From an uncultured Actinomycetota bacterium (GTDB taxonomy: Bacteria; Actinomycetota; Thermoleophilia; RBG-16-64-13), in contig OY969565.1 of assembly GCA_963701105.1 (NCBI GenBank), positions 1,014,998 through 1,078,997 on the forward strand: DNA of 64,000 nt, in the 5' to 3' direction. The translations under genes were made by a program, and so were the position numbers. Under the pieces are notes generated by a model that did no database searches, was not told the origin of the DNA, and saw only the letters and a list, made by a program, of their open reading frames with translations. Of the stretch, positions 49,650 to 61,980 are shown piece after piece. How positions within the stretch are numbered: position 1 is the stretch's first letter; the number at the start of each line of letters is the position of its first letter.

Positions 49650-52600
49650 CTATTGCCCTATCTGTTTCATCAGCTCATCAACAGCTTTCTTCAACTGTGC
49701 ATCTGTTCCTTTTGCACGGTAGTCCGGAGCATTCTCAACCACAAAATCAGGAGTAGCGGCTTCGTCTTCCATATCATTATTTGTCTTCTTTATATACCAT
49801 CCTCTGCCGGGCAGACGAACAAACGTACCATCAACCATACTTCTTCCGCCTGTGGAAATAACAGCACCGAAAGTTGGTTTACCGACAAGCTTCCCTATTC
49901 CCAAAGTCTGGTAAGCGTGAGAAAATATTTCCGCATTCGAATAACTGTTCTCATTGCACATAGCAATACTTGGTTTTATCCACGCTGTGTAAGGAAGCCT
50001 TTCACCAAGAGGATAATAACCTGTGAACTTAAGATGATCTTTTGCAAGGTTGTCTGCTGCACCTCGTCGGGATTGTGTACGCGTGCTGTTTGTAATTAAG
50101 GACAAGCATAAGATAATCCGTTGTCCAGCCGCCGCCGTTGTAGCGTACATCAACAACAATTGCATCTTTGCCGTTACCCGTTGCCTGAAGTTCTCTTTCA
50201 AATTCCTCAAAACTTTCCCAGCCCATTGCTTTTATATGAATATAGCCGATCCTTCCTTTTGAATATTCATCTGTTAATTTTTTCCTGTCCTGCACCCACT
50301 CATTATACAGAAGATCTTTTATATTATTTACGGGACGAATTATTACTTCTCTTGTTTTACCTTCTTTTGATTTAACTTCAAGCAGAACTCTTTCATCTGC
50401 TGTGTTTACAAACTTTGAGTAGAAATTAATATTTCCGCCGACATCTTCACCATTTACTTGTGTAATTACATCACCGGCTTCAAGTTTGCTTTCTGTTTTA
50501 TCTGCAGGACTTTCGGGTATAACCCGTTCAACAAGAATTCCGCCGTCTGCATTTCCTATTTCTATTCCGAGTAAGCCTGTAACTTCTTTCTGTGTTTCCT
50601 CACGGTCGCTTCCGTACATTCCCATATGGCTTGCGTTTATCTGCCCCAGCATAAAATTAAACATATACCTGAAGTCGCGGCTTGTTGAAGCAGCCATTAC
50701 CCAGGGTTTGTACTTCGCTTTAATTGCATTCCAGTCGTGACCATTAAAACCGGGATCATAAAAACCGTCTCTTATCATTCTCCACGATTCCTCAAAGATC
50801 TGTTCTTTTTCTTTTGAAAAATCTATCTGCATCTTTGCTGCATAAGAAAGACCTTCCTCTTTCTTTTTATCGAGATCAACTTTTGAAAGCTTACCTTCTC
50901 CTTTAAACAAATATATATTTTTTACATTCTTATCCGGGAGCAAAGAAGAATATGCATCGCTTCCTTTTATAATTGATTCAAAATCTTTTCCGTCCCACTT
51001 AATGCTGTAAAGCGAATAATCAAGTTTCTTTCCCTTACCCGATGAATAAGGAGCAGTAAAGTAAAATGTTTCACCGTCTGCGGAGATAATTACATTTCTT
51101 TCATCGCCGGGCATTGAAGTAACCTGGACTAATCTTTTATATATATCAGGGAAATCTATTTCAACTTCTTTTACTTTGGCTGAATCTTTATCTTTTTTCT
51201 TATCCTTTTTCTCTTCTTTCGGTTTTTCGGATTCATCCCAGTCCTGCTGAGTTTTTTCCCAATCGGCTTTCTTCAGCCAAACAAACCAGACATCCGCACT
51301 GTTGTTATTCCTGTCTGAAATAAATCCAAGTTTCGAACCATCAGGACTCCAGAACGGCTGACCGTCGTGCCTTGGATGCATACTTACATTTACTGCTTCG
51401 TGCGAGTTATCTGCAGCCTGTATAAAAATTTCATCATTGAAATAAAGATCGGTCTTTGAGTAAGCAAGCCATTTTGAATCAGGACTCCATGCTAAATCTA
51501 CCGGACCGGCCCAGTCATCAGATAATATTTTTTCATCGGAAAGCTTTCCGTCTTTATCAATCATTGCTGTAATAAGCTGACCGTTGCCGCGAAGGTAAGC
51601 GATCATCTTTCCGTCGGGCGACATTGATAATTCCGATTCATCTTTATCTGTGTTTGTTATTCTATCAACTTTATGCTTTAAGCTTTTAAATATGTTCGTT
51701 TCTTTTTTATCAGAAGAAGAAACAGCGTAAATATCAAACTCGCCTGCTTCATCCGAAGTAAAAACAAGAACGGAATCATTTACCCATTGCGGGTTTTCAT
51801 CTCTTGCAGGACTTTTGGTAAGGTTAACAGTAAGACTTTTATCTTTATCATTTTCTGTTACAAAAATATCTCCGCGTACTGCAAGAGCAATATATTTTCC
51901 GTTTGGTGAAAGTGAAAACTCCGATGCTTTTGAAGTGAGAGTTTTCCATTCATAAGGATCGAGCTTGTAATCCGATGCAACATCAATTGAAAGCTTGTTT
52001 AAGTTTGTTCCGTCTGAATTAATTGTGTAGAGATTCATATCCTTTTCCAGCACAAGCCTGTTTCCATTGCTGCTTACACTGAAATTACGCACGCCGTCAT
52101 CTGTAAAAGTTGTTACTGCACTTTCGGTTAATTTCTCACCGTTGGCACCGAGAGATATTTTATGAACATTGTATTTTCCGCTTGCAGAGCTGATGTAATA
52201 AATAGTGCGTTCGCCTCCCCATTCGGGTGAATAATCGTTGCCGGCAAAATCTGTAAGCTGAATATATTTTTTGTCTTTTGTGTCGTACAGCCAGATATCC
52301 CTGTTTGCAGAGCCGCGGTATTCTTCACGCGTAATACGGCAGTCTCCTTTTGTAAAAGCAATAAATCTTCCGTCGGGAGATTCTGCAGGATCGTAGCCGA
52401 ATGCATCGAGCGCTCTTTCAGGAGTTCCGCCGTTTGGTGATGCCGTATAAATTTCAGGCGACCATTCTACCGAGTTATAATTTCTTCGTAGTTGTAAAAT
52501 ATATTTTCCCGCTGTTGGACCAGCTTGATATAACATCGCCGGTTGAGTGGTAAGTAAGTCTTAAAGGAACTCCGCCGGCAGCATCCGCAACATAAATATC

Positions 52601-52867
52601 TGAGTTGCCGAACCTGTCACTGTTAAAAGCAATTTTATTTCCGTCCGGGCTCCACACACTATTAGTTTCTATTCCTTCGTGCTCGGTTATCCTGTCTGCT
52701 TTGCCGCCGGAAGAAGAAACAGTCCATATATCTCCCTGGTATGAAAAAGCAATCTTTGAGCCGTCTTTGTTAATTGAAGGATACAGAAGCAGAGGCTGGT
52801 TCTGCGGAAATGCGATTGAAGAAAGTAAAATAAGAACAGTGAAAAAGGCTAATGGTTTTAACATCAT
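49650..52867 (-). pseudogene. Tricorn-like protease (PD40/beta-propeller, PDZ and S41 peptidase domains), with two +1 frame shifts
   Basis: Three consecutive ORFs (52475-52867, 50029-52536, 49650-50210) together encode one protein of about 1070 aa: signal peptide, WSPDG repeats, PDZ (GDVITQVNGEDV), then the S41 core (DVRYNGGGW...NENSYSNAEIF). The breaks lie near 52481-52487 and 50066-50070. Confidence 0.8.
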
Positions 52868-53103: not shown

Positions 53104-54522
53104 TTACCTGCTGTCCACAATTACAAAAGTGATATCATCCTGCTGCGGAGTTTTTTTATCCTGCCATAATTTTAATTCACTCAAAAATACTTTCCCTAAC
53201 TCATCTGCAGCAAGATTTTTGTTACTACTAATTAACTCATCTAAACGTTTATTTCCAAATTCATCTCCTGCAGCATTCCTGGATTCAGTAAGACCATCTG
53301 TATAAAGCAGGAAGCGTCATTGTGTTTTGAATGCAAAGCTACGCTCAGGATATTCTGTCTCTGTTGAAACTCCAAAAAGCAAACCATTGCTTTCGACCGA
53401 CTCAAGCTTTCCAGCAGAAGAATTCCAGTAAAGTAATGGCGGATGACCTGCTGCTGCATATCTGGCTAAATATTTTTCTGAATCAATATAAAGATAAGCG
53501 GCAGTTACAAACTGTCCGTGAAGCTGGCTGCCAAGTATTTTACCAAGCTGACTCAGTACTTCACCCGGATATTTTGCAGCATCTATAACCGACTGCATTG
53601 CAATTTTTATCATCGAGGCAATTAAAGCTGCAGGAACCCCATGACCCGAAACATCAGCAATAAGAAAACCGGCTTCGTGTGGACTGATCTCAATAAAATC
53701 ATAAAAATCACCTGCCACTGAAGTCATCGGGTAATAAGCAGCAGCTATATTTAATCCTTTTATCTCAGGTACATTAGCGGGAAGAATTGAAGTCTGTATC
53801 TGCCGGGCGGTCTCCATTTCATTTTCAATTGTAATCAGTTTTCGTTCATTAGTAAAGATTATGTTTGCTGCTGTGTAAGCCAGCGCTAAAAGTAAAACCG
53901 CAAAACCAAACCAGCCGGTAAATGGATAAGTCTCGTAACCAACGAGTCCTGATAAATTTGTGTACAGTGCTTCAACTATAAAAATAATTGTACCAACAGC
54001 CAGCACACCGCGGTTGGGAAGAACAAGGTACTTATCCGCTAATGATTTTACCGAAAGAACAACTACTAGAAATATCAGGGTTGCTGCTGCCAAAAGACTA
54101 TTGGGAAGCATAAAAGCTTGTGAATTACCTGTAATAAAAAACCAGGCGATACCCAGAACAGCGATGACCAATGCAGCAATGATCATAACTATAATTATTG
54201 TGCGGACTTTTTCCCTGGTTAAATACACCCACGTGAGCAGAGCAAAAACCAGTATCAAATAACTTATTATTACATCTGCTGCTGGAATAATGCTTTGAAT
54301 GAACTGGGGAAAGAATATATTAACTGCTTCCGATTCAATTAATAACCTTAACCCGTAAGCCCCGCTCCACGCTGCAAGCCATATTAATATCCTGATGTCT
54401 CTCCCGCGTCGCAGCAATGCAATAGAAACAGATACCAGTCCGACCAGTAAAAAGAATGTGCCGAAGATAATTTCCCCGAGCTGCTGACTGAGTTGACTAA
54501 TGTTCTGCATTTCATTTTGCAT
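53104..54522 (-). pseudogene. Membrane-bound SpoIIE/PP2C-type protein phosphatase with an in-frame TGA
   Basis: The 401-aa ORF has about 8 N-terminal TM helices and a PP2C domain (GDFYDF, ADVSGHG). It stops at TGA 53317-53319. The same frame continues RFLLYTDGLTESRNAAGDEFG...DDITFVIVDSR to TAA 53104-53106, which supplies the missing C-terminal PP2C motifs. Confidence 0.75.
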
Positions 54523-56048: not shown

Positions 56049-56396
56049 CTATTCATAATTTCTCATTTCATTTCTGACTTTCGTTAACAAATTAATCATT
56101 CCCTTTCTAGACTCATCTATAAACGAAATAAAAGCTTTCATTTCATTTTCCAACTCTTTATTTAATCTATCGATCTCTTTTTGGATATTATCCTTGTAGT
56201 CACTTTCTTGGAGATTAGTATTAAGATTGTGAAAAAAATCTAGAGAAGTTACTACCACTTTTAAATTTGATAAACATTTTAGAAAATTTATCATCCCTTC
56301 ATTGTTCCAAAATGAATCATCGATATCAAAGTACAATAGAAAAGAATTCGCAATTTGATTGGATGCTTCTTGGAGTTTATTTAATTGAATGGTCAA
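56049..56396 (-). CDS. Helical hypothetical protein, probably the 3' part of a larger disrupted gene
   Basis: 115 aa with a TTG start. The frame stays open upstream without a start codon. A second frame from about 56690 to 56400 encodes IDCSIFTVVIGKVLHLIQQSKQHKY...LGSIARLYEQAPVLEK with similar helical character. Confidence 0.35.
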   Translation of the reverse strand: MTIQLNKLQEASNQIANSFLLYFDIDDSFWNNEGMINFLKCLSNLKVVVTSLDFFHNLNTNLQESDYKDNIQKEIDRLNKELENEMKAFISFIDESRKGMINLLTKVRNEMRNYE

Positions 56397-56744
56397 AGAA
56401 TTATTAAGGGCATTAAATACATCTCTTTCGATACCTTTTCCAAAACAGGTGCTTGTTCATATAATCTGGCGATTGAACCAAGAAGATTTGCAGATAGATA
56501 CCACTGCGAAACTGCTGCATATGCCACTTCTAATTTCTTAGTAAAAAAAGTTTTCTGAATTGAGTATTTATGCTGTTTAGACTGCTGTATAAGATGGAGT
56601 ACTTTACCGATTACAACTGTGAATATTGAACAATCAATCTAACAAGGATCGCATCAAAATGTATTAATATTCGACTCCATTGTAGCACCAAGAATTTAAT
56701 GCTTAAGCTATCTTTAACTTTTATCAAAAAAGGTAGTTAATTAT

Positions 56745-57376
56745 CTAGTTTTCTATTACTACCGAAATTGTCAGGATTATTTTTTTATTTTTATTTTCTT
56801 TAAATAAAATAAATTCATTATAATTCTTTTTCCAAGAGTATCTTAAACGAAACTTATATATTGATGTTGCGAATATTAAACCGAGAATGAAAAATGAAAG
56901 ATTTAACCAAAGTAGAAATGTGGTGCAATAACAATCGCAATGGAAGGCTAAGATTATAAAAGAAATTAATCCACCAAACTTAGATTCAAAAACAAATGAT
57001 AGAAACCGCTTTGTGTCTCGGTTTTTATCTTTGAGTCTGATTCAAGTGTGTAATAAAATATATAGTACTCTTCTTCCACTTCTCTGTCCGTTTTGCCTCT
57101 GTATAATTCAGGATTGTTTTTTCGCATTAGAGTTGTTGGAAGATCCTTTACGATACCGCGAAATAATCTGGGATAATCTATTGAATATAGAGCTCCTCCA
57201 ATGAATATTGAAAACACAACGAAGATTATCCCACTTATAACATCATTATTGAAACATTTCTCATCTAACTCAAAACAATTCTTTAAGATAACATAAAAAA
57301 TTGAAGTTAAATAAAAGCCAGGGATAATAATTCTTAATATTTCATACAATTTGAAGGAAGACATAATACTATTCAT
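56745..57376 (-). pseudogene. Small multi-TM membrane protein, apparently frame-shifted; candidate effector of the TIR cluster
   Basis: ATG 57376 is preceded by AAGGAA. Two TM helices (ILRIIIPGFYLTSIFYVIL, VISGIIFVVFSIFIGGALY) are followed by a soluble loop, and the ORF stops at 56966 inside a hydrophobic stretch. The +2 frame continues LISFIILAFHCDCYCTTFLLWLNLSFFILGLIFATSIYKF... to TAG 56745-56747, adding two more TM helices. Confidence 0.5.
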
Positions 57377-57413
57377 ATTTATTTCCTTATTAACCAACTT
57401 TGAGTTTTCAAGA

Positions 57414-57905
57414 TTAAATATTATTTCTGATTTCTATTGCCTTATCAATCCAAGATTCAATGTTTTCTTTTATATGATCATAAATGTAAGTACTTGTTAT
57501 AAAAGGGGGATCATAACATTTAACAATTGATGACATAGTTTTATCTCCGATAGTGAAATCATCAAATGGATTACTTCCTTTGTTACATTGGTTCCCATTT
57601 ACATCTTTAAGATTATGAACGTAAACACGAAAAATTCTACGTCCATCATCCCAAGCTTTTTTGATTTCATATTTAATCCATTTACGCCCTGCTGTGTTTT
57701 CACCTACAAATACTATTACACAAGATTTCCCCAACATATTGTCACCTATCCATTTTTTTATAGCATCAACTCCACCATTTGTAACTTCCTCCCATTTGTT
57801 TGTTGTGGCGACACTATTCCCTTCAATTTTTCCCATATTTCTAATCTGTGAGGCTCTCCAGTTATCGGGTTTATAGTGAAAACTAGTAAAAACTTTTTTA
57901 GCCAT
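57414..57905 (-). CDS. TIR-like domain protein (DUF1863 / ThsB-like)
   Basis: 163 aa. KVFTSFHYKPDNWRASQIRN and ...VIVFVGENTAGRKWIKYEIKKA show the beta-A strand motif plus W-x-x-x-E, typical of MTH538/DUF1863 TIR-like proteins. Confidence 0.75.
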   Translation of the reverse strand: MAKKVFTSFHYKPDNWRASQIRNMGKIEGNSVATTNKWEEVTNGGVDAIKKWIGDNMLGKSCVIVFVGENTAGRKWIKYEIKKAWDDGRRIFRVYVHNLKDVNGNQCNKGSNPFDDFTIGDKTMSSIVKCYDPPFITSTYIYDHIKENIESWIDKAIEIRNNI

Positions 57906-57931
57906 ATTTTCTCTTAAAATATTTTAATCAA

Positions 57932-58108
57932 CTAATTTTTTAATATATAATCTGCAATATTATCCTTTATCTCAAATGCGATACCAATATATTGGTCAAT
58001 ATCTTTTTCAAAGTCATCCCAAGTAACACAAAAAATATATGAGAAATATCCATAATAAATAGCGGAACCATTACAATCAGATGTTTGAGGTTTTTTCAAA
58101 TTAAACAT
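57932..58108 (-). CDS. 58-aa ORF: separate small gene or detached C-terminus of the upstream TIR-like gene
   Basis: Below the ORF-track cutoff. It encodes MFNLKKPQTSDCNGSAIYYGYFSYIFCVTWDDFEKDIDQYIGIAFEIKDNIADYILKN. Its tail resembles the C-terminal helix of the 57414 protein (YDHIKENIESWIDKAIEI). Confidence 0.35.
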   Translation of the reverse strand: MFNLKKPQTSDCNGSAIYYGYFSYIFCVTWDDFEKDIDQYIGIAFEIKDNIADYILKN

Positions 58109-58119
58109 GTTATCTCTAA

Positions 58120-58581
58120 TTATTTTAAATAAGATAATGTGTTATAAAAAATACTATTGCAAGCTTCGTTATATGTCATAAAATAACTATAATTATTAAA
58201 TTCATCTGGCAGAACAACTAATAATACAGCATTTGTTTCGCTTGTTCTTTTATCTCTAGTTAATTCTCTAAGTGAGTATGAAATCTCCCAAGGAATCCAT
58301 TGATAAGATTCTGGTTTTCCTTCCTCTTTCATCCCTTTAGATATAAAGATGATAGTTACACTACTGTCGAATATCTTTCCTTTTAATTTTGTTGCAATTG
58401 TTTCATCTTTAAATTCTTCTAAACTCTCATTATCATTTTCTCCTGTGTATAAATGGTCCTCTTCATCCAGTAAATCTTGAAGTTTATCAACATAATCTCT
58501 AGCAGTTGTAAAAATATTAGTATTAAGCTTATAAACTTTAGAATCTGAATACTTATATGTTACAAAAATCTTTTTACCCAT
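58120..58581 (-). CDS. TIR-like domain protein (second ThsB-like paralogue)
   Basis: Start preferred at ATG 58581 (GGAG 8 nt upstream). The ORF track starts at 58653, abutting the upstream stop. [11 protein letters not shown]...[10 protein letters not shown]...[12 protein letters not shown] shows the TIR beta-A strand and W-x-x-x-E motif. Confidence 0.65.
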
Positions 58582-58653
58582 TTTTTTTCTCCATGAATTA
58601 TAACCACATTTTTCTGAGCAAATCCTTAAAAAGTGACAAATAAGTATATTCAT

Positions 58654-59190
58654 TTAAAAGCGAACATCCGGATGAGGAATAATACGATCATAAATCAACC
58701 TGGCAGCAGCACCAGTACTGGCAACAGGTAAAATTAGCGATCCAGGATGTGATAGTTTAAACAAATCAAATTCTTTTTCTACTCCTTCCATTCCACCAAT
58801 AAAGATGCCTACCTTGAAGTCATTATCTTCAAACATTTTTTTTCTCATTGACATCAAACTACTTTCCAAATCATTTTTTTCCGGAATTATAACGATATCT
58901 TCAAAATCAAAATTATCATCTGGGAAATGTTCACGATAAAAATTAGATTGATATATAGTTAAGTGTTCTTTTAAACTTACGTCAAGATTATTCATGACAT
59001 ATCTGATCAGAGGTGTGATTGAAGGATGTCCACCCCGAATTAATTTTGCACGTGGAATTACTATACTTGCCAATGCTCTTATTGAATCTCTTATAGCAAT
59101 GATATCTGCAGTGTTATAATATTTTTTATCCCGCTTTGGATCAGGTATACTTGCAGATAAAAATATTTTATTTAAATATTCCTTAGCCAC
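58654..59190 (-). CDS. Stand-alone SLOG/LOG-like Rossmannoid nucleotide-binding protein
   Basis: 178 aa. KIFLSASIPDP, RGGHPSITPL and VGIFIGGMEGVEKEF (a GGxxGxxxE motif as in LOG/SLOG) are present, with LPVASTGAAA. There is a 19-nt overlap with the upstream TIR gene. The assignment is motif-based only. Confidence 0.55.
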   Translation of the reverse strand: MAKEYLNKIFLSASIPDPKRDKKYYNTADIIAIRDSIRALASIVIPRAKLIRGGHPSITPLIRYVMNNLDVSLKEHLTIYQSNFYREHFPDDNFDFEDIVIIPEKNDLESSLMSMRKKMFEDNDFKVGIFIGGMEGVEKEFDLFKLSHPGSLILPVASTGAAARLIYDRIIPHPDVRF

Positions 59191-60086
59191 TTCTCTCTTT
59201 CAAAAAATTTAATACTACGAACTGGTAAATATTTATCTAACCAATCAAGATGGTCCAACCATTTTTTTCGAATATTTATATGATCAAACAATAAAAAAAT
59301 CTCTTTTATTTTTTTTGATTTTATTTGGTTTACTAATTCTTCTGATTGGTTGTACGTAAAAGCTTGAGGAATTCCAATAGTCGGAATAATTAAAAATTGC
59401 TCCGTATTGTTTTTTTTAATAACTAGTAATTTATTTGCTTGAAGTGTGATCTTCACTTTGAGTTTTTTAGCTGAATTTATAAATTCATTTGTGATATTTG
59501 ATTGTCGAGCCATCAGACTTCTAGCTCTTAAAGATTCAACCTGAGAAATTAATTTCCTAAGAGTAGTTTCAGTGGGATAACTATCTTTATCAGAATACAA
59601 TTTATTACCAAAACTATTAATTATCAGTTTATATGGTATACTCAATTTTGCAAAGTCTTCAAGATTATGTTTAGGCCATACAATTTGAAGAATACCAATA
59701 GACATTGAATTTGCCTTAGCAAGTTCCTGTTTTGTCCAATTACTGTCTAAGAATCCTGGCGTATTAAGCAAAACAACAACATCAGTATCGGTTAGCCTAT
59801 GCCACAATTCTTCCTGAAATACGTCAGTTGGCCTAACGCTATGAGTATCTAAAAATACATCAAACCCCGAAGCTTCTAATTTTTCGAACAGTTGAATGGC
59901 AACTAATCTTGATTCATTTCTACGATAGCTAATAAATATTCTTCGAGCAATTCTAAGTAAACCAAAACCTTCCAAAATGGAACTAACTACGGATTCAAAA
60001 TTGACAGTTGTTTTTAACTCTATTCCATTAATCTCGTATAAGAGACTTGGTACAGAATTTCTAAAATCCTTTGAAATCATGAACAA
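59172..60086 (-). CDS. TIR domain protein with uncharacterised C-terminal domain of about 130 aa
   Basis: 304 aa. RIFISYRRNESRLVAIQLFEKLEASGFDVFLD...DVVVLLNTPGFLDSNWTKQELAKA is a canonical TIR. The start is TTG 60086 or ATG 60080. Confidence 0.8.
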   Translation of the reverse strand: MFMISKDFRNSVPSLLYEINGIELKTTVNFESVVSSILEGFGLLRIARRIFISYRRNESRLVAIQLFEKLEASGFDVFLDTHSVRPTDVFQEELWHRLTDTDVVVLLNTPGFLDSNWTKQELAKANSMSIGILQIVWPKHNLEDFAKLSIPYKLIINSFGNKLYSDKDSYPTETTLRKLISQVESLRARSLMARQSNITNEFINSAKKLKVKITLQANKLLVIKKNNTEQFLIIPTIGIPQAFTYNQSEELVNQIKSKKIKEIFLLFDHINIRKKWLDHLDWLDKYLPVRSIKFFEREKWLRNI

Positions 60087-60321
60087 CAGGGAGTACTAAT
60101 ACAGAATCATTTAGTAGCATTCTCAAACTAATAATATCATTATGTATTCCTGCATTTTTGCCAAAATATAAACAGAATGAAGGCCGGTTTTTTTTATAAT
60201 AATTATTGATATTATTTCTATCAAGAACAATTATGGAATTTTTATCAATCTCTAATTCATTAATATGTTTAAAAAAAACTTTTAGTAATTCAGATCGAAA
60301 GGGAATATAATCTCCCAACAA
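60061..60321 (-). CDS. Hypothetical 86-aa ORF, possibly the frame-shifted N-terminus of the TIR protein
   Basis: Only a TTG start is available, with no obvious SD. It overlaps the 59172-60086 ORF by 26 nt in the +1 relation. Confidence 0.3.
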   Translation of the reverse strand: MLGDYIPFRSELLKVFFKHINELEIDKNSIIVLDRNNINNYYKKNRPSFCLYFGKNAGIHNDIISLRMLLNDSVLVLPVVHDFKGF

Positions 60322-60362
60322 AAATTAATTGATACTTATATATCATATAATATTCATTAGTG

Positions 60363-60956
60363 TTATTGCCATAACCATTGCTTCAATGGAGTAATATATC
60401 TTATTCCTTCTTTATTTCTGGGTTTACAAAAATAGTACCCTGGAGCAATCAATTCATTTGTACTCACGAATTTATTATTTCCGTTTTCATAATCAATACT
60501 TGGATAGATTTGAAGATATTCATTACCTTTATAATAAGAATCTAGACTATCTTGATCCTTAATTGGTAGAATTGCTATATGGTTTGGAAATTTGTATGTA
60601 TCTCCAATTCCTAATTCCCAGTTACACCAATATGACTCAATAGCATTGTTAGTAGCAATAAAAATAAATTTATTACAAAAGTCGATAACTTCTTTTATTC
60701 TTAATGCCGTATCGCTTGAAGCCTGAGATGGTAATTTATTATCCATAATATCTATATATGTATTTACACCTATTTTTTTTAACAAACCAATTATACCTCT
60801 GAGTTCATTAACATCATCATGATTGTGAGATAAAAAAACTGCCGGAATATAAGACGACTCATATCTAGAACTAAATTTTTGAGAGGCTTTCAGTGATTCG
60901 TTAATGAATGATTCCGTAACTCTATTGTCATCAAAATGCCCACGTTCAAAAATCAT
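60363..60956 (-). CDS. TIR domain protein (first gene of the array)
   Basis: 197 aa. PAVFLSHNHDDVNELRGIIGLLKKIGVNTYID...FIFIATNNAIESYWCNWELG is the bacterial TIR_2-type pattern. Confidence 0.8.
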   Translation of the reverse strand: MIFERGHFDDNRVTESFINESLKASQKFSSRYESSYIPAVFLSHNHDDVNELRGIIGLLKKIGVNTYIDIMDNKLPSQASSDTALRIKEVIDFCNKFIFIATNNAIESYWCNWELGIGDTYKFPNHIAILPIKDQDSLDSYYKGNEYLQIYPSIDYENGNNKFVSTNELIAPGYYFCKPRNKEGIRYITPLKQWLWQ

Positions 60957-61205: not shown

Positions 61206-61980
61206 TTATGGGTTACTCAGTTCACTTACAAAATCAATCCGATGTTCCTCTTTTTTCAGTAACATTGCTGCCTGTTGTTTTAGTATATCTTTTATCTCAG
61301 TGTATTTAAGGGAATTCTCTGCAAACCGCATCATATCATAACTGCCGTAAAATGATTCCCAGTTATCCGGAAATATTACAATTTGTATAACACGCGGTGC
61401 CCCGATCCTTGGCTGAAAACCTTCGATTGGATAAGGATAATTTATCTCTTTCAGAAGTGCTATGTATTTTTTTTGTAAAGTATTAAAATTTTTTTCATAC
61501 GCCGGTTTAATAGTATAATCTGTAACCAATGCCTTTGGATTGGTGGTTGTATTCATAGATTTCACGGAGCCTAAAAAATTATCCTGCTGTAAAACCATAT
61601 CTCTTACAATCTCAAAATCAGTTTCCAGCAGAAGGTTTATTGCCTCCTTATAAGATTGTTCGAATTTCGTTTGATTCAATAAATTATAAAATTCAGATTT
61701 ATCCGGAATGTCTTCTAAACTATCGGCAAAAAGTATAAGCCAGTAATTAAATGAATTTTCACGATAAACCAGCCAGAAAAAATTATCCTGGTGTGAGGTT
61801 TTATAAATTTCGGTTATCGATCTTAACAGCTTTTTCCCATCGGCTTGTATCGGCAGGATTTACTTTAAATACTGTTTCCCTTATATAAATATCAAGGTTA
61901 TCTTTCTGAGTCTCATTCTGCGCCCGGCATTGAATTGCCTGCACAAAAAATATAATGAAAATGAGTAAACAGCTTTTCAA
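61206..61980 (-). pseudogene. Secreted hypothetical protein with one +1 frame shift
   Basis: TTG 61980 is preceded by AAGGAG and opens a 59-codon signal-peptide ORF (KSCLLIFIIFFVQAIQC...), which stops at 61801. The +1 frame is open from about 61860 and runs into the 157-aa track ORF (61206-61679). The likely slip lies at the T5/A5 run 61831-61835. Confidence 0.55.

Follow-up and report, generated by a model that had tools for sequence, protein, structure and literature searches.

A probable type III Thoeris locus with four TIR genes, a stand-alone SLOG gene and an adjoining membrane-protein gene

The 64-kb window (the whole stretch of DNA analysed here) carries on its minus strand, at 57.4-61.0 kb, four genes for TIR-fold proteins and one for a stand-alone SLOG protein, as identified by profile searches, next to a gene for a small membrane protein. 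Does this array represent a new, split sensor/effector form of TIR-based immunity, as a first-pass annotation had proposed, or does it belong to a described type of Thoeris, and does the membrane protein take part in it? We consider it likely, with good confidence, that the locus is a type III Thoeris system and that the membrane gene is a bystander. The features, from the upstream end, are the following.

60363..60956, minus strand: TIR-A, accessory ThsB-type TIR protein, 197 aa, intact
59172..60321, minus strand: ThcB4, core three-domain TIR protein, ~390 aa in its family
58598..59190, minus strand: ThcA (= ThsD), stand-alone SLOG cluster-3 protein, main ORF 58654-59190 (178 aa)
57932..58581, minus strand: TIR-C, accessory ThsB-type TIR protein, 219 aa in the comparison contig L001
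57414..57905, minus strand: TIR-D, accessory ThsB/DUF1863-type TIR protein, 163 aa, intact
56781..57376, minus strand: four-helix membrane protein, ~200 aa, with weak similarity to Csx27; a neighbour, probably outside the system
56049..56727, minus strand: two neighbouring ORFs, a helical one of 115 aa (56049-56396) and one of ~111 aa (56396-56727)

Assignment of the locus

The first-pass annotation had read four TIR-fold proteins and one separate SLOG protein from the letters of the sequence, and these folds were confirmed by Pfam, PADLOC and NCBIfam; its link to Thoeris-type TIR signalling was correct, given the ThsB-family, ThcA and ThcB4 profile matches. Profile searches, which it had suggested as a check, returned significant TIR and SLOG matches for the array proteins, and ThsB models of PADLOC, suggested likewise, matched all four TIR proteins. 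TIR-A was recognised by Pfam TIR_2 (2e-8) and PADLOC ThsB PDLC00423 (8e-59), the 304-aa ThcB4 ORF at 59172-60086 by TIR_2 (3e-13), the ThcB4 pieces by ThsB PDLC00434 (2e-93 and 1.4e-11), the TIR-C ORF at 58120-58653 by Pfam ThsB_TIR (2.6e-5), the N- and C-terminal pieces of TIR-C by PDLC00428 (2e-56 and 5e-11), and TIR-D by ThsB_TIR (6.8e-25) and PDLC00433 (2e-70). The SLOG protein (58654-59190) matched Pfam LD_cluster3 (SLOG cluster 3, PF18180) at 7.8e-54. Among solved structures, TIR-A matched the TIR protein 8btn (7e-17, with W-E-L-G aligned), TIR-C matched 9vyl, a "putative cyclic ADP-D-ribose synthase TIR1" (5e-74), and TIR-D matched 8wcf (5e-38) and BcThsB (6lhy/9b7d, 2e-16). By these PADLOC and PDB matches the accessory proteins A, C and D belong to families that serve as ThsB elsewhere.

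The subtype follows from two NCBIfam equivalog models with curated cut-offs. The SLOG protein scored 223 bits against NF058525, "Thoeris type III ThcA" (cut-off 110), and the long TIR protein, in its 304-aa piece, 351 bits against NF058526, "ThcB4" (cut-off 220), of which positions 6-88 are matched by the remaining 86-aa piece. Distant members encoded on a Sinorhizobium plasmid and in Bacteroidota also pass these cut-offs. TIR-A, -C and -D matched no NCBIfam type III model, and the same was true of the accessory TIRs in those further type III loci that were tested. As had been noted beforehand, SIR2, Macro, protease and nuclease domains were not found in the array by profile searches, and a tblastn search with a SIR2-SLOG ThsA returned no match within the window.

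Type III Thoeris was published in 2024 (van den Berg et al., 2024, Cell Host & Microbe 32:1427, as cited in later papers) and is described in these as comprising several TIR proteins and a SLOG-only effector, with signalling that they call uncharacterised. Since ThcA and ThcB4 pass the models of this published type, the view that the locus is not a described subtype was overturned; the annotation had itself named assignment by search tools to a defined Thoeris subtype as an outcome speaking against that view, and the NCBIfam type III models make this assignment.

A conserved ThcB4-ThcA core with exchangeable TIR genes

Relatives of ThcA occur in 401 species genomes, and 80 of their loci were fetched for comparison. 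ThcB4 lies directly upstream of ThcA on the same strand in 79 of the 80, and in 62 of these 79 the start of ThcA overlaps the stop of ThcB4 by 19 nt, exactly as in the window. The full order A-ThcB4-ThcA-C-D recurs in many of the loci (L005, L006, L010, L018, L023, L026 and L031). Usually two to four TIR genes are present per locus. ThcB4 is the sole TIR within 4 kb in six of the 80, and there it would also have to serve as sensor and signal generator, or use TIRs encoded elsewhere. Pairwise-identity matrices of ThcA and ThcB4 are strongly correlated (r=0.83), whereas those of ThcA and A, C or D are less so (0.34-0.45), which indicates that the ThcB4-ThcA core has been inherited as a unit while the accessory TIRs were shuffled. 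The conserved core is ThcB4 followed by ThcA, and around it lie A, C and D, three TIR genes of ThsB type that can be exchanged. One of the related loci (L033) comes from Sediminibacterium magnilacihabitans DSM 22423, whose multi-TIR defence island (six ThsB, ThsA and ThsD) is shown in a figure of a 2025 preprint. One preprint reports no abortive-infection phenotype for type III, which sits uneasily with an output that simply depletes NAD.

ThcB4 has three domains: an alpha/beta domain at the N-terminus, the TIR domain, and a C-terminal domain specific to the family (an AF2 model of the homologue P0129 has a pLDDT of 79). The Glu of the W-x-x-x-E motif, pointed out earlier in all four TIR proteins, was upheld by alignments and by conservation. 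In ThcB4 the putative catalytic residue (NWTKQELA) aligns with SARM1 E642 and is kept in 77/77 homologues from related loci; in the accessory proteins it aligns with the Y-E-I, W-E-L and W-E-I motifs of solved ThsB/TIR structures and is retained in 59/59 homologues of TIR-A (WCNWELG), 43/44 of TIR-C (QWIPWEIS) and 59/59 of TIR-D (KWIKYEIK).

Proposed mechanism and the role of ThcA

Beyond the combination of TIR with SLOG, the mechanism is one that we infer. One or more TIR proteins would detect phage infection and, by means of the conserved Glu, might convert NAD+ into an ADP-ribose-derived signal, which ThcA could bind in the counterpart of the pocket that takes up 3'cADPR in the SLOG domain of ThsA. 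The output could then pass through ThcB4, the obligate partner of ThcA, whose TIR domain might for instance be triggered to act as an NADase. This last step we put forward only tentatively, as a possibility somewhat short of an even chance. Its main alternative would be that ThcA is itself catalytically active in the manner of LOG proteins.

In that case ThcA would be the effector, a nucleotide N-glycosidase that is activated by the TIR signal and depletes or modifies a nucleotide pool, and ThcB4 merely another sensor TIR. ThcA belongs to the SLOG/LOG superfamily (PF18180), and its family alignment shows invariant GGHPxITP and GGMEGxxxE motifs and an invariant Arg; we take the two motifs to resemble the GGGxxGxM and PGGxGTxxE motifs of LOG proteins. 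The invariant residues R116, G136 and E140, however, align with positions of the ThsA SLOG domain which we equate with R371, G399 and E403 of BcThsA, residues that contact 3'cADPR. In the ThsA sensor these positions bind a ligand and are not catalytic, and the motifs therefore do not discriminate between a sensor and an enzyme. The similarity of ThcA to the ThsA SLOG domain covers 62 columns only in hhalign (43% probability), and ThcA scored 20.5 bits against STALD, below the cut-off of 24. An enzymatic role gains no structural support from a low-confidence model of ThcA, for which no significant structural match was found, and it leaves unexplained the near-obligate pairing of ThcA with ThcB4 through the 19-nt overlap and their co-evolution. 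On the other side, ThcA/ThsD is termed the effector in the literature, the type VIII Thoeris system has a nucleotide-hydrolase effector, and a non-lethal effect on nucleotides would suit the lack of abortive infection reported for type III. We regard this explanation as unlikely, even if it is the most serious competitor of an output through ThcB4.

Frameshifts

The ORFs of the first-pass annotation do all lie on the minus strand at the positions it gave, but several turned out to be fragments of frameshifted genes. As assembled, ThcB4 falls into two pieces by tblastn frames, 60061-60321 (86 aa) and 59172-60086 (304 aa), being split at about 60065-60075, and a further 1-nt indel at 60308 removes its first ~10 codons. 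The last ~20 aa of ThcA (196 aa in the family alignment) are encoded in another frame (58598-58656), past a T-run at about 58657 in which the frame shifts by 1 nt, TIR-C is interrupted at 58136 and at 57945 by single-nucleotide indels relative to the near-identical contig L001, and the membrane gene is frameshifted at about 56972.

With three of the five system genes and the neighbouring membrane gene interrupted, the locus might be a decaying, non-functional remnant, and its low G+C content (0.29-0.31, against 0.33-0.41 in the surroundings) is what would be expected of acquired, possibly dispensable DNA. A comparison with L001, an independent assembly 98% identical to the window, makes this improbable. 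Over 8.2 kb, 32 small indels of 1-2 nt separate the two, some in one direction and some in the other, and each assembly has intact frames where the other has interrupted ones: only the window has an open TIR-A, and only L001 an open TIR-C. The housekeeping flank, with 19 of these indels in 2.9 kb, is no less affected than the defence part, with 13 in 5.3 kb, so that read or assembly errors are the likelier source. Housekeeping genes, such as those for a tricorn protease and a SpoIIE phosphatase, are likewise split. Indels aside, every invariant family residue examined is retained. We therefore conclude that the frameshifts in the array most likely are read or assembly errors; the two that both assemblies share, one in the membrane gene and one near the C-terminal end of ThcA, could be real.

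The membrane gene and the small neighbouring ORFs

In the proposal of the first-pass annotation ThcA would sense the TIR signal and activate the separate membrane protein, which would damage the membrane and kill or arrest the cell. The gene does lie 3' of TIR-D on the same strand at a distance of about 16-37 nt, ThcA itself carries no effector domain, the membrane protein shows similarity to Csx27, which is known as an accessory membrane protein from type VI-B CRISPR defence (PADLOC, 1.3e-6 to 1.7e-7, the latter for the full-length relative P0122), and types II and VII Thoeris are precedents in the literature for TIRs with membrane effectors; yet the idea is very improbable and did not survive comparison, as none of the 80 related ThcA loci holds a homologue (phmmer, and a 3-sequence profile at E<10), only about 9/80 have a small multi-TM ORF of any kind in the same-strand gene run, and many consist just of ThcB4 and ThcA, or of TIR genes and ThcA, bordered by opposite-strand genes. 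The family amounts to three clusters in a database of 5.8 billion protein clusters (the window protein and two relatives), and neither relative has TIR or SLOG genes around it. Pfam yielded no family match, SLATT included.

Like Csx27, the window protein is about 200 aa long, and its family shows two hydrophobic segments towards the N-terminus and two towards the C-terminus, as read from the alignment. By contrast, the window copy, at 22.8 bits, falls short of the 65 bits that the NCBIfam Csx27 model requires, and a Cas13b-sized gene was not found at 38-64 kb of the window. The membrane gene is thus most likely an unrelated neighbour of the Thoeris operon. The two small ORFs at 56049..56727 matched no family in Pfam, PADLOC or NCBIfam and had no homologue in the 80 related loci or beside the membrane-protein homologues; they are unrelated neighbours of the system, the ~111-aa ORF being broken in the window and intact in L001.

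Relation to other Thoeris types

With types II and VII (Macro-TM and SLATT) the locus would share a path from TIR signal to membrane damage only if the membrane gene were involved, and it differs from them in having neither a Macro nor a SLATT domain and in that this gene does not accompany the system in the related loci. From type I, with its SIR2-SLOG ThsA and ThsB, it is distinguished by the absence of a SIR2 domain anywhere in the window and by a SLOG protein that belongs to cluster 3 rather than STALD and is separate, paired with a dedicated three-domain TIR protein. It resembles type I in that its TIRs belong to the same ThsB families and in its candidate SLOG sensor, which, as judged from its sequence, keeps the putative Arg/Gly/Glu ligand-contact positions. 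With type III it shares a stand-alone SLOG protein and a ThcB4 that each pass their equivalog model, further TIR genes in one operon, and an array lacking a SIR2, Macro or caspase effector. It departs from other members of this type in its identity of about 60% to the nearest relatives, its origin from an uncultured organism whose genome looks Bacteroidota- or Ignavibacteria-like, its frames broken as assembled and the rare membrane gene that adjoins it. Within such a type III system, ThcB4 and ThcA would together constitute a split TIR-SLOG effector, for which TIR-A, -C and -D may act as interchangeable sensors.

Identity of the array

As judged from its profile matches, the minus-strand TIR array of the window is a type III Thoeris locus, one further example of that system, from an uncultured genome. 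The stand-alone SLOG protein ThcA scores 223.1 bits against the NCBIfam model NF058525 (“Thoeris type III anti-phage system protein ThcA,” cut-off 110), and a 304-aa fragment of the long TIR protein ThcB4 scores 351.4 bits against NF058526 (“ThcB4,” cut-off 220), both of them curated equivalog models. Our description of type III is drawn from these models and from citing papers. In the latter, type III is credited to van den Berg et al. (2024) and presented as several TIR-domain proteins with a SLOG-domain effector, its signalling being uncharacterised; the TIR genes are named thcB in a citing paper, the SLOG domain is said not to be the STALD one found in type I, the effector is reported to have been renamed ThsD, TadIII-1 is given as a known phage inhibitor and type III is referred to as phage-tested. 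The window has the type III features, i.e., a stand-alone SLOG gene, thcB4 directly upstream of thcA and several TIR genes per operon. Passing of the NCBIfam cut-offs, together with the description in the citing papers, places the locus in a named system. The first-pass annotation had regarded the architecture as not being a described subtype, a claim that has to be given up, since the tools assign the locus to a defined and published Thoeris subtype.

ORFs of the array and just upstream of it (positions in the window, E-values in brackets):
61206-61679, ORF of 157 aa just upstream of the array, inside a low-G+C patch
60363-60956, minus, TIR-A: Pfam TIR_2 (2e-8), PADLOC ThsB (8e-59)
60061-60321, minus, 86-aa ORF with the ThcB4 N-terminus: positions 28-94 of 396 in the PADLOC model, 6-88 of 375 in the NCBIfam model
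59172-60086, minus, ThcB4 main piece, 304 aa: Pfam TIR_2 (3e-13) followed by a C-terminal part, PADLOC ThsB (2e-93)
58654-59190, minus, ThcA: SLOG cluster 3, Pfam PF18180 (7.8e-54), no second domain
58120-58653, minus, TIR-C N-terminal piece: ThsB-type TIR, PF08937 (2.6e-5), PADLOC ThsB (2e-56)
57932-58108, minus, 58-aa ORF with the TIR-C C-terminus: PADLOC match
57414-57905, minus, TIR-D: ThsB-type TIR, PF08937 (6.8e-25), PADLOC ThsB (2e-70)

The Pfam and PADLOC searches recover the four TIR-fold genes on one strand and the single stand-alone SLOG gene that had been read from the bare sequence, and the PADLOC ThsB models, which match all four TIR proteins, bear out the link to Thoeris made there. 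The Glu of the W-x-x-x-E motif, putatively catalytic and needed for signal production or NADase competence, is indeed kept in all four: that of ThcB4 aligns with E642 of SARM1, those of TIR-A, TIR-C and TIR-D align with equivalent motifs in solved ThsB/TIR structures, and it is retained in 59/59, 77/77, 43/44 and 59/59 homologues of the four TIR families in related loci. A set of residues is likewise highly conserved in the family alignment of ThcA. TIR-D also matches the PADLOC candidate PDC-M50B (3.7e-59).

SIR2, Macro, protease and nuclease domains, already reported as missing in the first reading, were not detected in the array ORFs by profile searches, and the SIR2-SLOG ThsA of Sediminibacterium magnilacihabitans DSM 22423 (source of locus L033) found no tblastn match within the 64-kb window. 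A multi-TIR island of S. magnilacihabitans with six ThsB, ThsA and ThsD is shown in a figure of a 2025 preprint. Thoeris type I, in which a SIR2 NADase is fused to a STALD-type SLOG domain in ThsA, is rejected, as the array ORFs lack SIR2, the ThsA search was empty and the STALD score (20.5 bits) stays below the cut-off of 24. Type II, with an effector composed of a Macro domain and transmembrane helices, is also rejected, as a Macro domain is absent from every ORF searched.

Conservation of the ThcB4-ThcA pair

Relatives of ThcA form 2366 clusters at E ≤ 1e-5 and occur in 401 of 185,579 species genomes. ORFs were mapped in 80 fetched ThcA loci, chiefly from Bacteroidota, and in 79 of them the gene for ThcA (~196 aa) is immediately preceded, without a change of strand, by one for ThcB4 (~390 aa), with an overlap of 19 nt in 62 of the 79 that is identical in the window. 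Most loci carry two to four TIR genes, the full order A-ThcB4-ThcA-C-D recurs in seven (L005, L006, L010, L018, L023, L026 and L031), and a Sinorhizobium plasmid encodes four TIR proteins with ThcB4 and ThcA, the latter two passing the same NCBIfam models. Pairwise-identity matrices of ThcA correlate with those of ThcB4 at r = 0.83, as opposed to 0.34-0.45 for the accessory TIR families. NCBIfam type III models exist for ThcA and ThcB4 only, and neither the window nor loci L066 and L085 have accessory TIRs that match one. On these sequence comparisons the conserved and co-evolving unit is the overlapping ThcB4-ThcA pair, the other TIRs being exchangeable. No separately encoded effector gene is conserved with the pair across the 80 loci. 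By hhalign the ThcB4 and ThcA families show no relationship to each other. A phmmer search with the C-terminal domain of ThcB4 against 1.84 billion representatives returned 202 hits, nearly all of ThcB4 length with the domain in the same position and none of them an informative fusion; as far as this search reaches, the domain is specific to the ThcB4 family.

Many type III loci are accompanied by a four-gene module (L060:11349-14385) encoding a MazG+MazG_C protein (295 aa), a protein with a 5-hmdU-DNA-kinase-like helical domain (338 aa), a ThsB/DUF1863-type TIR protein (164 aa) and Nmad2 (214 aa). The module was scanned with Pfam in L060, and eight other loci (L016, L043, L044, L048, L050, L072, L074 and L077) were assigned to it from matching gene sizes and order. 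It may represent a TIR-linked nucleotide-modification defence module.

In a Flavobacteriia locus (L066:6048-16609), a type I restriction-modification operon houses a ThcB4-ThcA-C-A cassette, which is bordered by HsdM/HsdS at one end and by a Schlafen/AlbA_2 protein and HsdR at the other, so that two defence systems are nested. This arrangement was Pfam-scanned in L066; L037, L056, L058, L065, L069, L070, L078 and L079 were assigned to it from similar gene sizes.

The membrane gene and the surroundings of the array

The gene run continues past TIR-D with a membrane gene, whose product had been proposed as a split effector. Members of its four-helix family are very rare, with three clusters in a database of 5.8 billion:
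56781-57376 of the window, minus
L082:10001-10627, contig of a relative
L083:281-886, contig of a relative

The two relatives (208 and 201 aa, 81% and 66% identity) have no TIR or SLOG genes nearby, and their neighbours are unrelated to the small ORFs of the window. Homologues of the membrane protein were found in none of the 80 related loci, neither by phmmer nor with a three-sequence profile at E < 10, so that the effector proposal is not supported. As a conserved gene set, the array thus held up in its ThcB4-ThcA pair and in the recurring A-ThcB4-ThcA-C-D order, but not with respect to the membrane gene. Only about 9 of the 80 loci contain a small multi-TM ORF of whatever type within the run of genes on the same strand, and many loci end at opposite-strand genes immediately behind their TIR and SLOG genes. 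For the two small ORFs downstream, none of the loci examined yielded a relative. The 157-aa ORF (61206-61679) is without match in Pfam, PADLOC and NCBIfam and without homologue in the 80 loci. The low-G+C patch (0.29-0.31, vs. 0.33-0.41 elsewhere) is flanked by genes annotated as housekeeping; a search of the window for island borders turned up neither a tRNA gene nor a convincing repeat at the flanks.

Tight spacing is the sole argument for including the membrane gene and the two small ORFs, and tight same-strand packing can wrongly pull a neighbouring gene into a system; we treat them as neighbours in the low-G+C patch and not as part of the system. That ThcA is a free-standing receptor with exchangeable separate effectors, having recruited here a Csx27-like membrane protein and perhaps the two small ORFs, we consider highly improbable; if true, the locus would derive from type III Thoeris and have its output split between a SLOG sensor and a membrane effector. 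The similarity to Csx27 is weak (PADLOC 1.7e-7 for a full-length relative; 22.8 bits for the window copy in NF040557, cut-off 65), and a Csx27 identity is rejected on this score and on the housekeeping neighbours at 38-64 kb of the window, whereas Csx27 is an accessory of type VI-B CRISPR encoded beside cas13b. The family sits outside any CRISPR type VI-B context. Thoeris type VII, which has a SLATT-domain membrane effector adjoining a TIR gene, is rejected too, as neither SLATT nor any other Pfam family is matched by the membrane protein or by its full-length relatives. The L082 copy adjoins a 272-aa ORF (HerA/FtsK-type ATPase-like by eye), a 354-aa multi-TM protein and a DUF5131 gene.

Frameshifts and assembly quality

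As assembled, the genes for ThcB4, ThcA and TIR-C are frameshifted, so that several of the listed ORFs are gene fragments, and the membrane protein (~200 aa) is split near 56972. Between the window and a near-identical metagenomic contig (L001; 98% identity over 8.2 kb) there are 32 small indels of 1-2 nt, running either way, 19 of them in 2.9 kb of housekeeping flank and 13 in 5.3 kb of the defence part, and genes open in one assembly are broken in the other, each way round. Housekeeping genes of the window are split as well, namely a tricorn-like protease (52475-52867 and 50029-52536, Peptidase_S41 domain cut) and a SpoIIE phosphatase (53317-54522, domain cut), which suggests that the window as a whole comes from a noisy assembly, probably of long reads. 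Noisy long-read assemblies can mimic pseudogenes. A “deletion-only” repair merging the window with L001 was rejected because it breaks TIR-A, i.e., the errors run both ways. Read or assembly error is thus the likelier source of the frameshifts, as far as a comparison of sequences can tell, and the locus is probably intact in vivo and mis-assembled here.

Two shifts are common to both assemblies, one at the ThcA tail and one in the membrane gene, and these could be real or systematic errors. The former lies in a T4 run (CGCTTTTAAATG; window 58654-58660 and L001:2550-2556), identical in the two independent assemblies, and the final ~20 residues matching the family C-terminus are encoded in another frame right after the stop. 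Either the homopolymer has caused a systematic error here, or the C-terminal helix is truly truncated.

Signalling and output

By analogy with other Thoeris types, the TIR proteins would turn NAD+ into an ADP-ribose-derived signal upon infection. TIR-D matches BcThsB (2e-16) and TIR-C matches PDB 9vyl, “putative cyclic ADP-D-ribose synthase TIR1” (5e-74); a literature search found no paper describing PDB codes 9VYL, 8WCF and 8BTN. Since TIR-C and TIR-D belong to accessory families that serve as ThsB elsewhere, the signal may be a cADPR isomer. ThcA probably binds it in a pocket homologous to that of the ThsA SLOG domain, as suggested by the alignment of R116, G136 and E140 with ThsA SLOG positions. 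These positions we take to be R371, G399 and E403 of BcThsA, which contact 3'cADPR.

Structure prediction was of no help, and ThcA remained without significant match. The AlphaFold2 model of ThcA, built from a 17-sequence alignment, is of low confidence (mean pLDDT 69, residues 13-40 below 50) and had no Foldseek match in the PDB below E = 1e-3, while the ThcA profile gave marginal matches to ThsA SLOG among PDB sequences (E = 0.12-1.2). In the AlphaFold2 model of a full-length ThcB4 homologue (pLDDT 79), three alpha/beta domains are accompanied by a long helix; when the whole chain was submitted to Foldseek, its only matches were the SARM1 TIR and double-Rossmann proteins of a generic kind (TM 0.16-0.25), and of the three modelled domains only the TIR is given an identity.

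As no separate effector gene is conserved, the output has to come from ThcA, ThcB4 or a host factor. The lack of an effector domain in ThcA and of a conserved effector gene lead us to favour output through ThcB4, which would form with ThcA a split TIR-SLOG effector. The chief rival reading gives ThcA itself a LOG-like enzymatic activity. It is kept alive by one preprint in which abortive infection is reported to be absent from the type III phenotype, which argues against simple lethal NAD depletion. The locus thus adds one type III example and little that is new in kind, but the choice between ThcA, ThcB4 and a host factor is a concrete and testable statement, and the finding of a core pair narrows the output mechanism of type III Thoeris.
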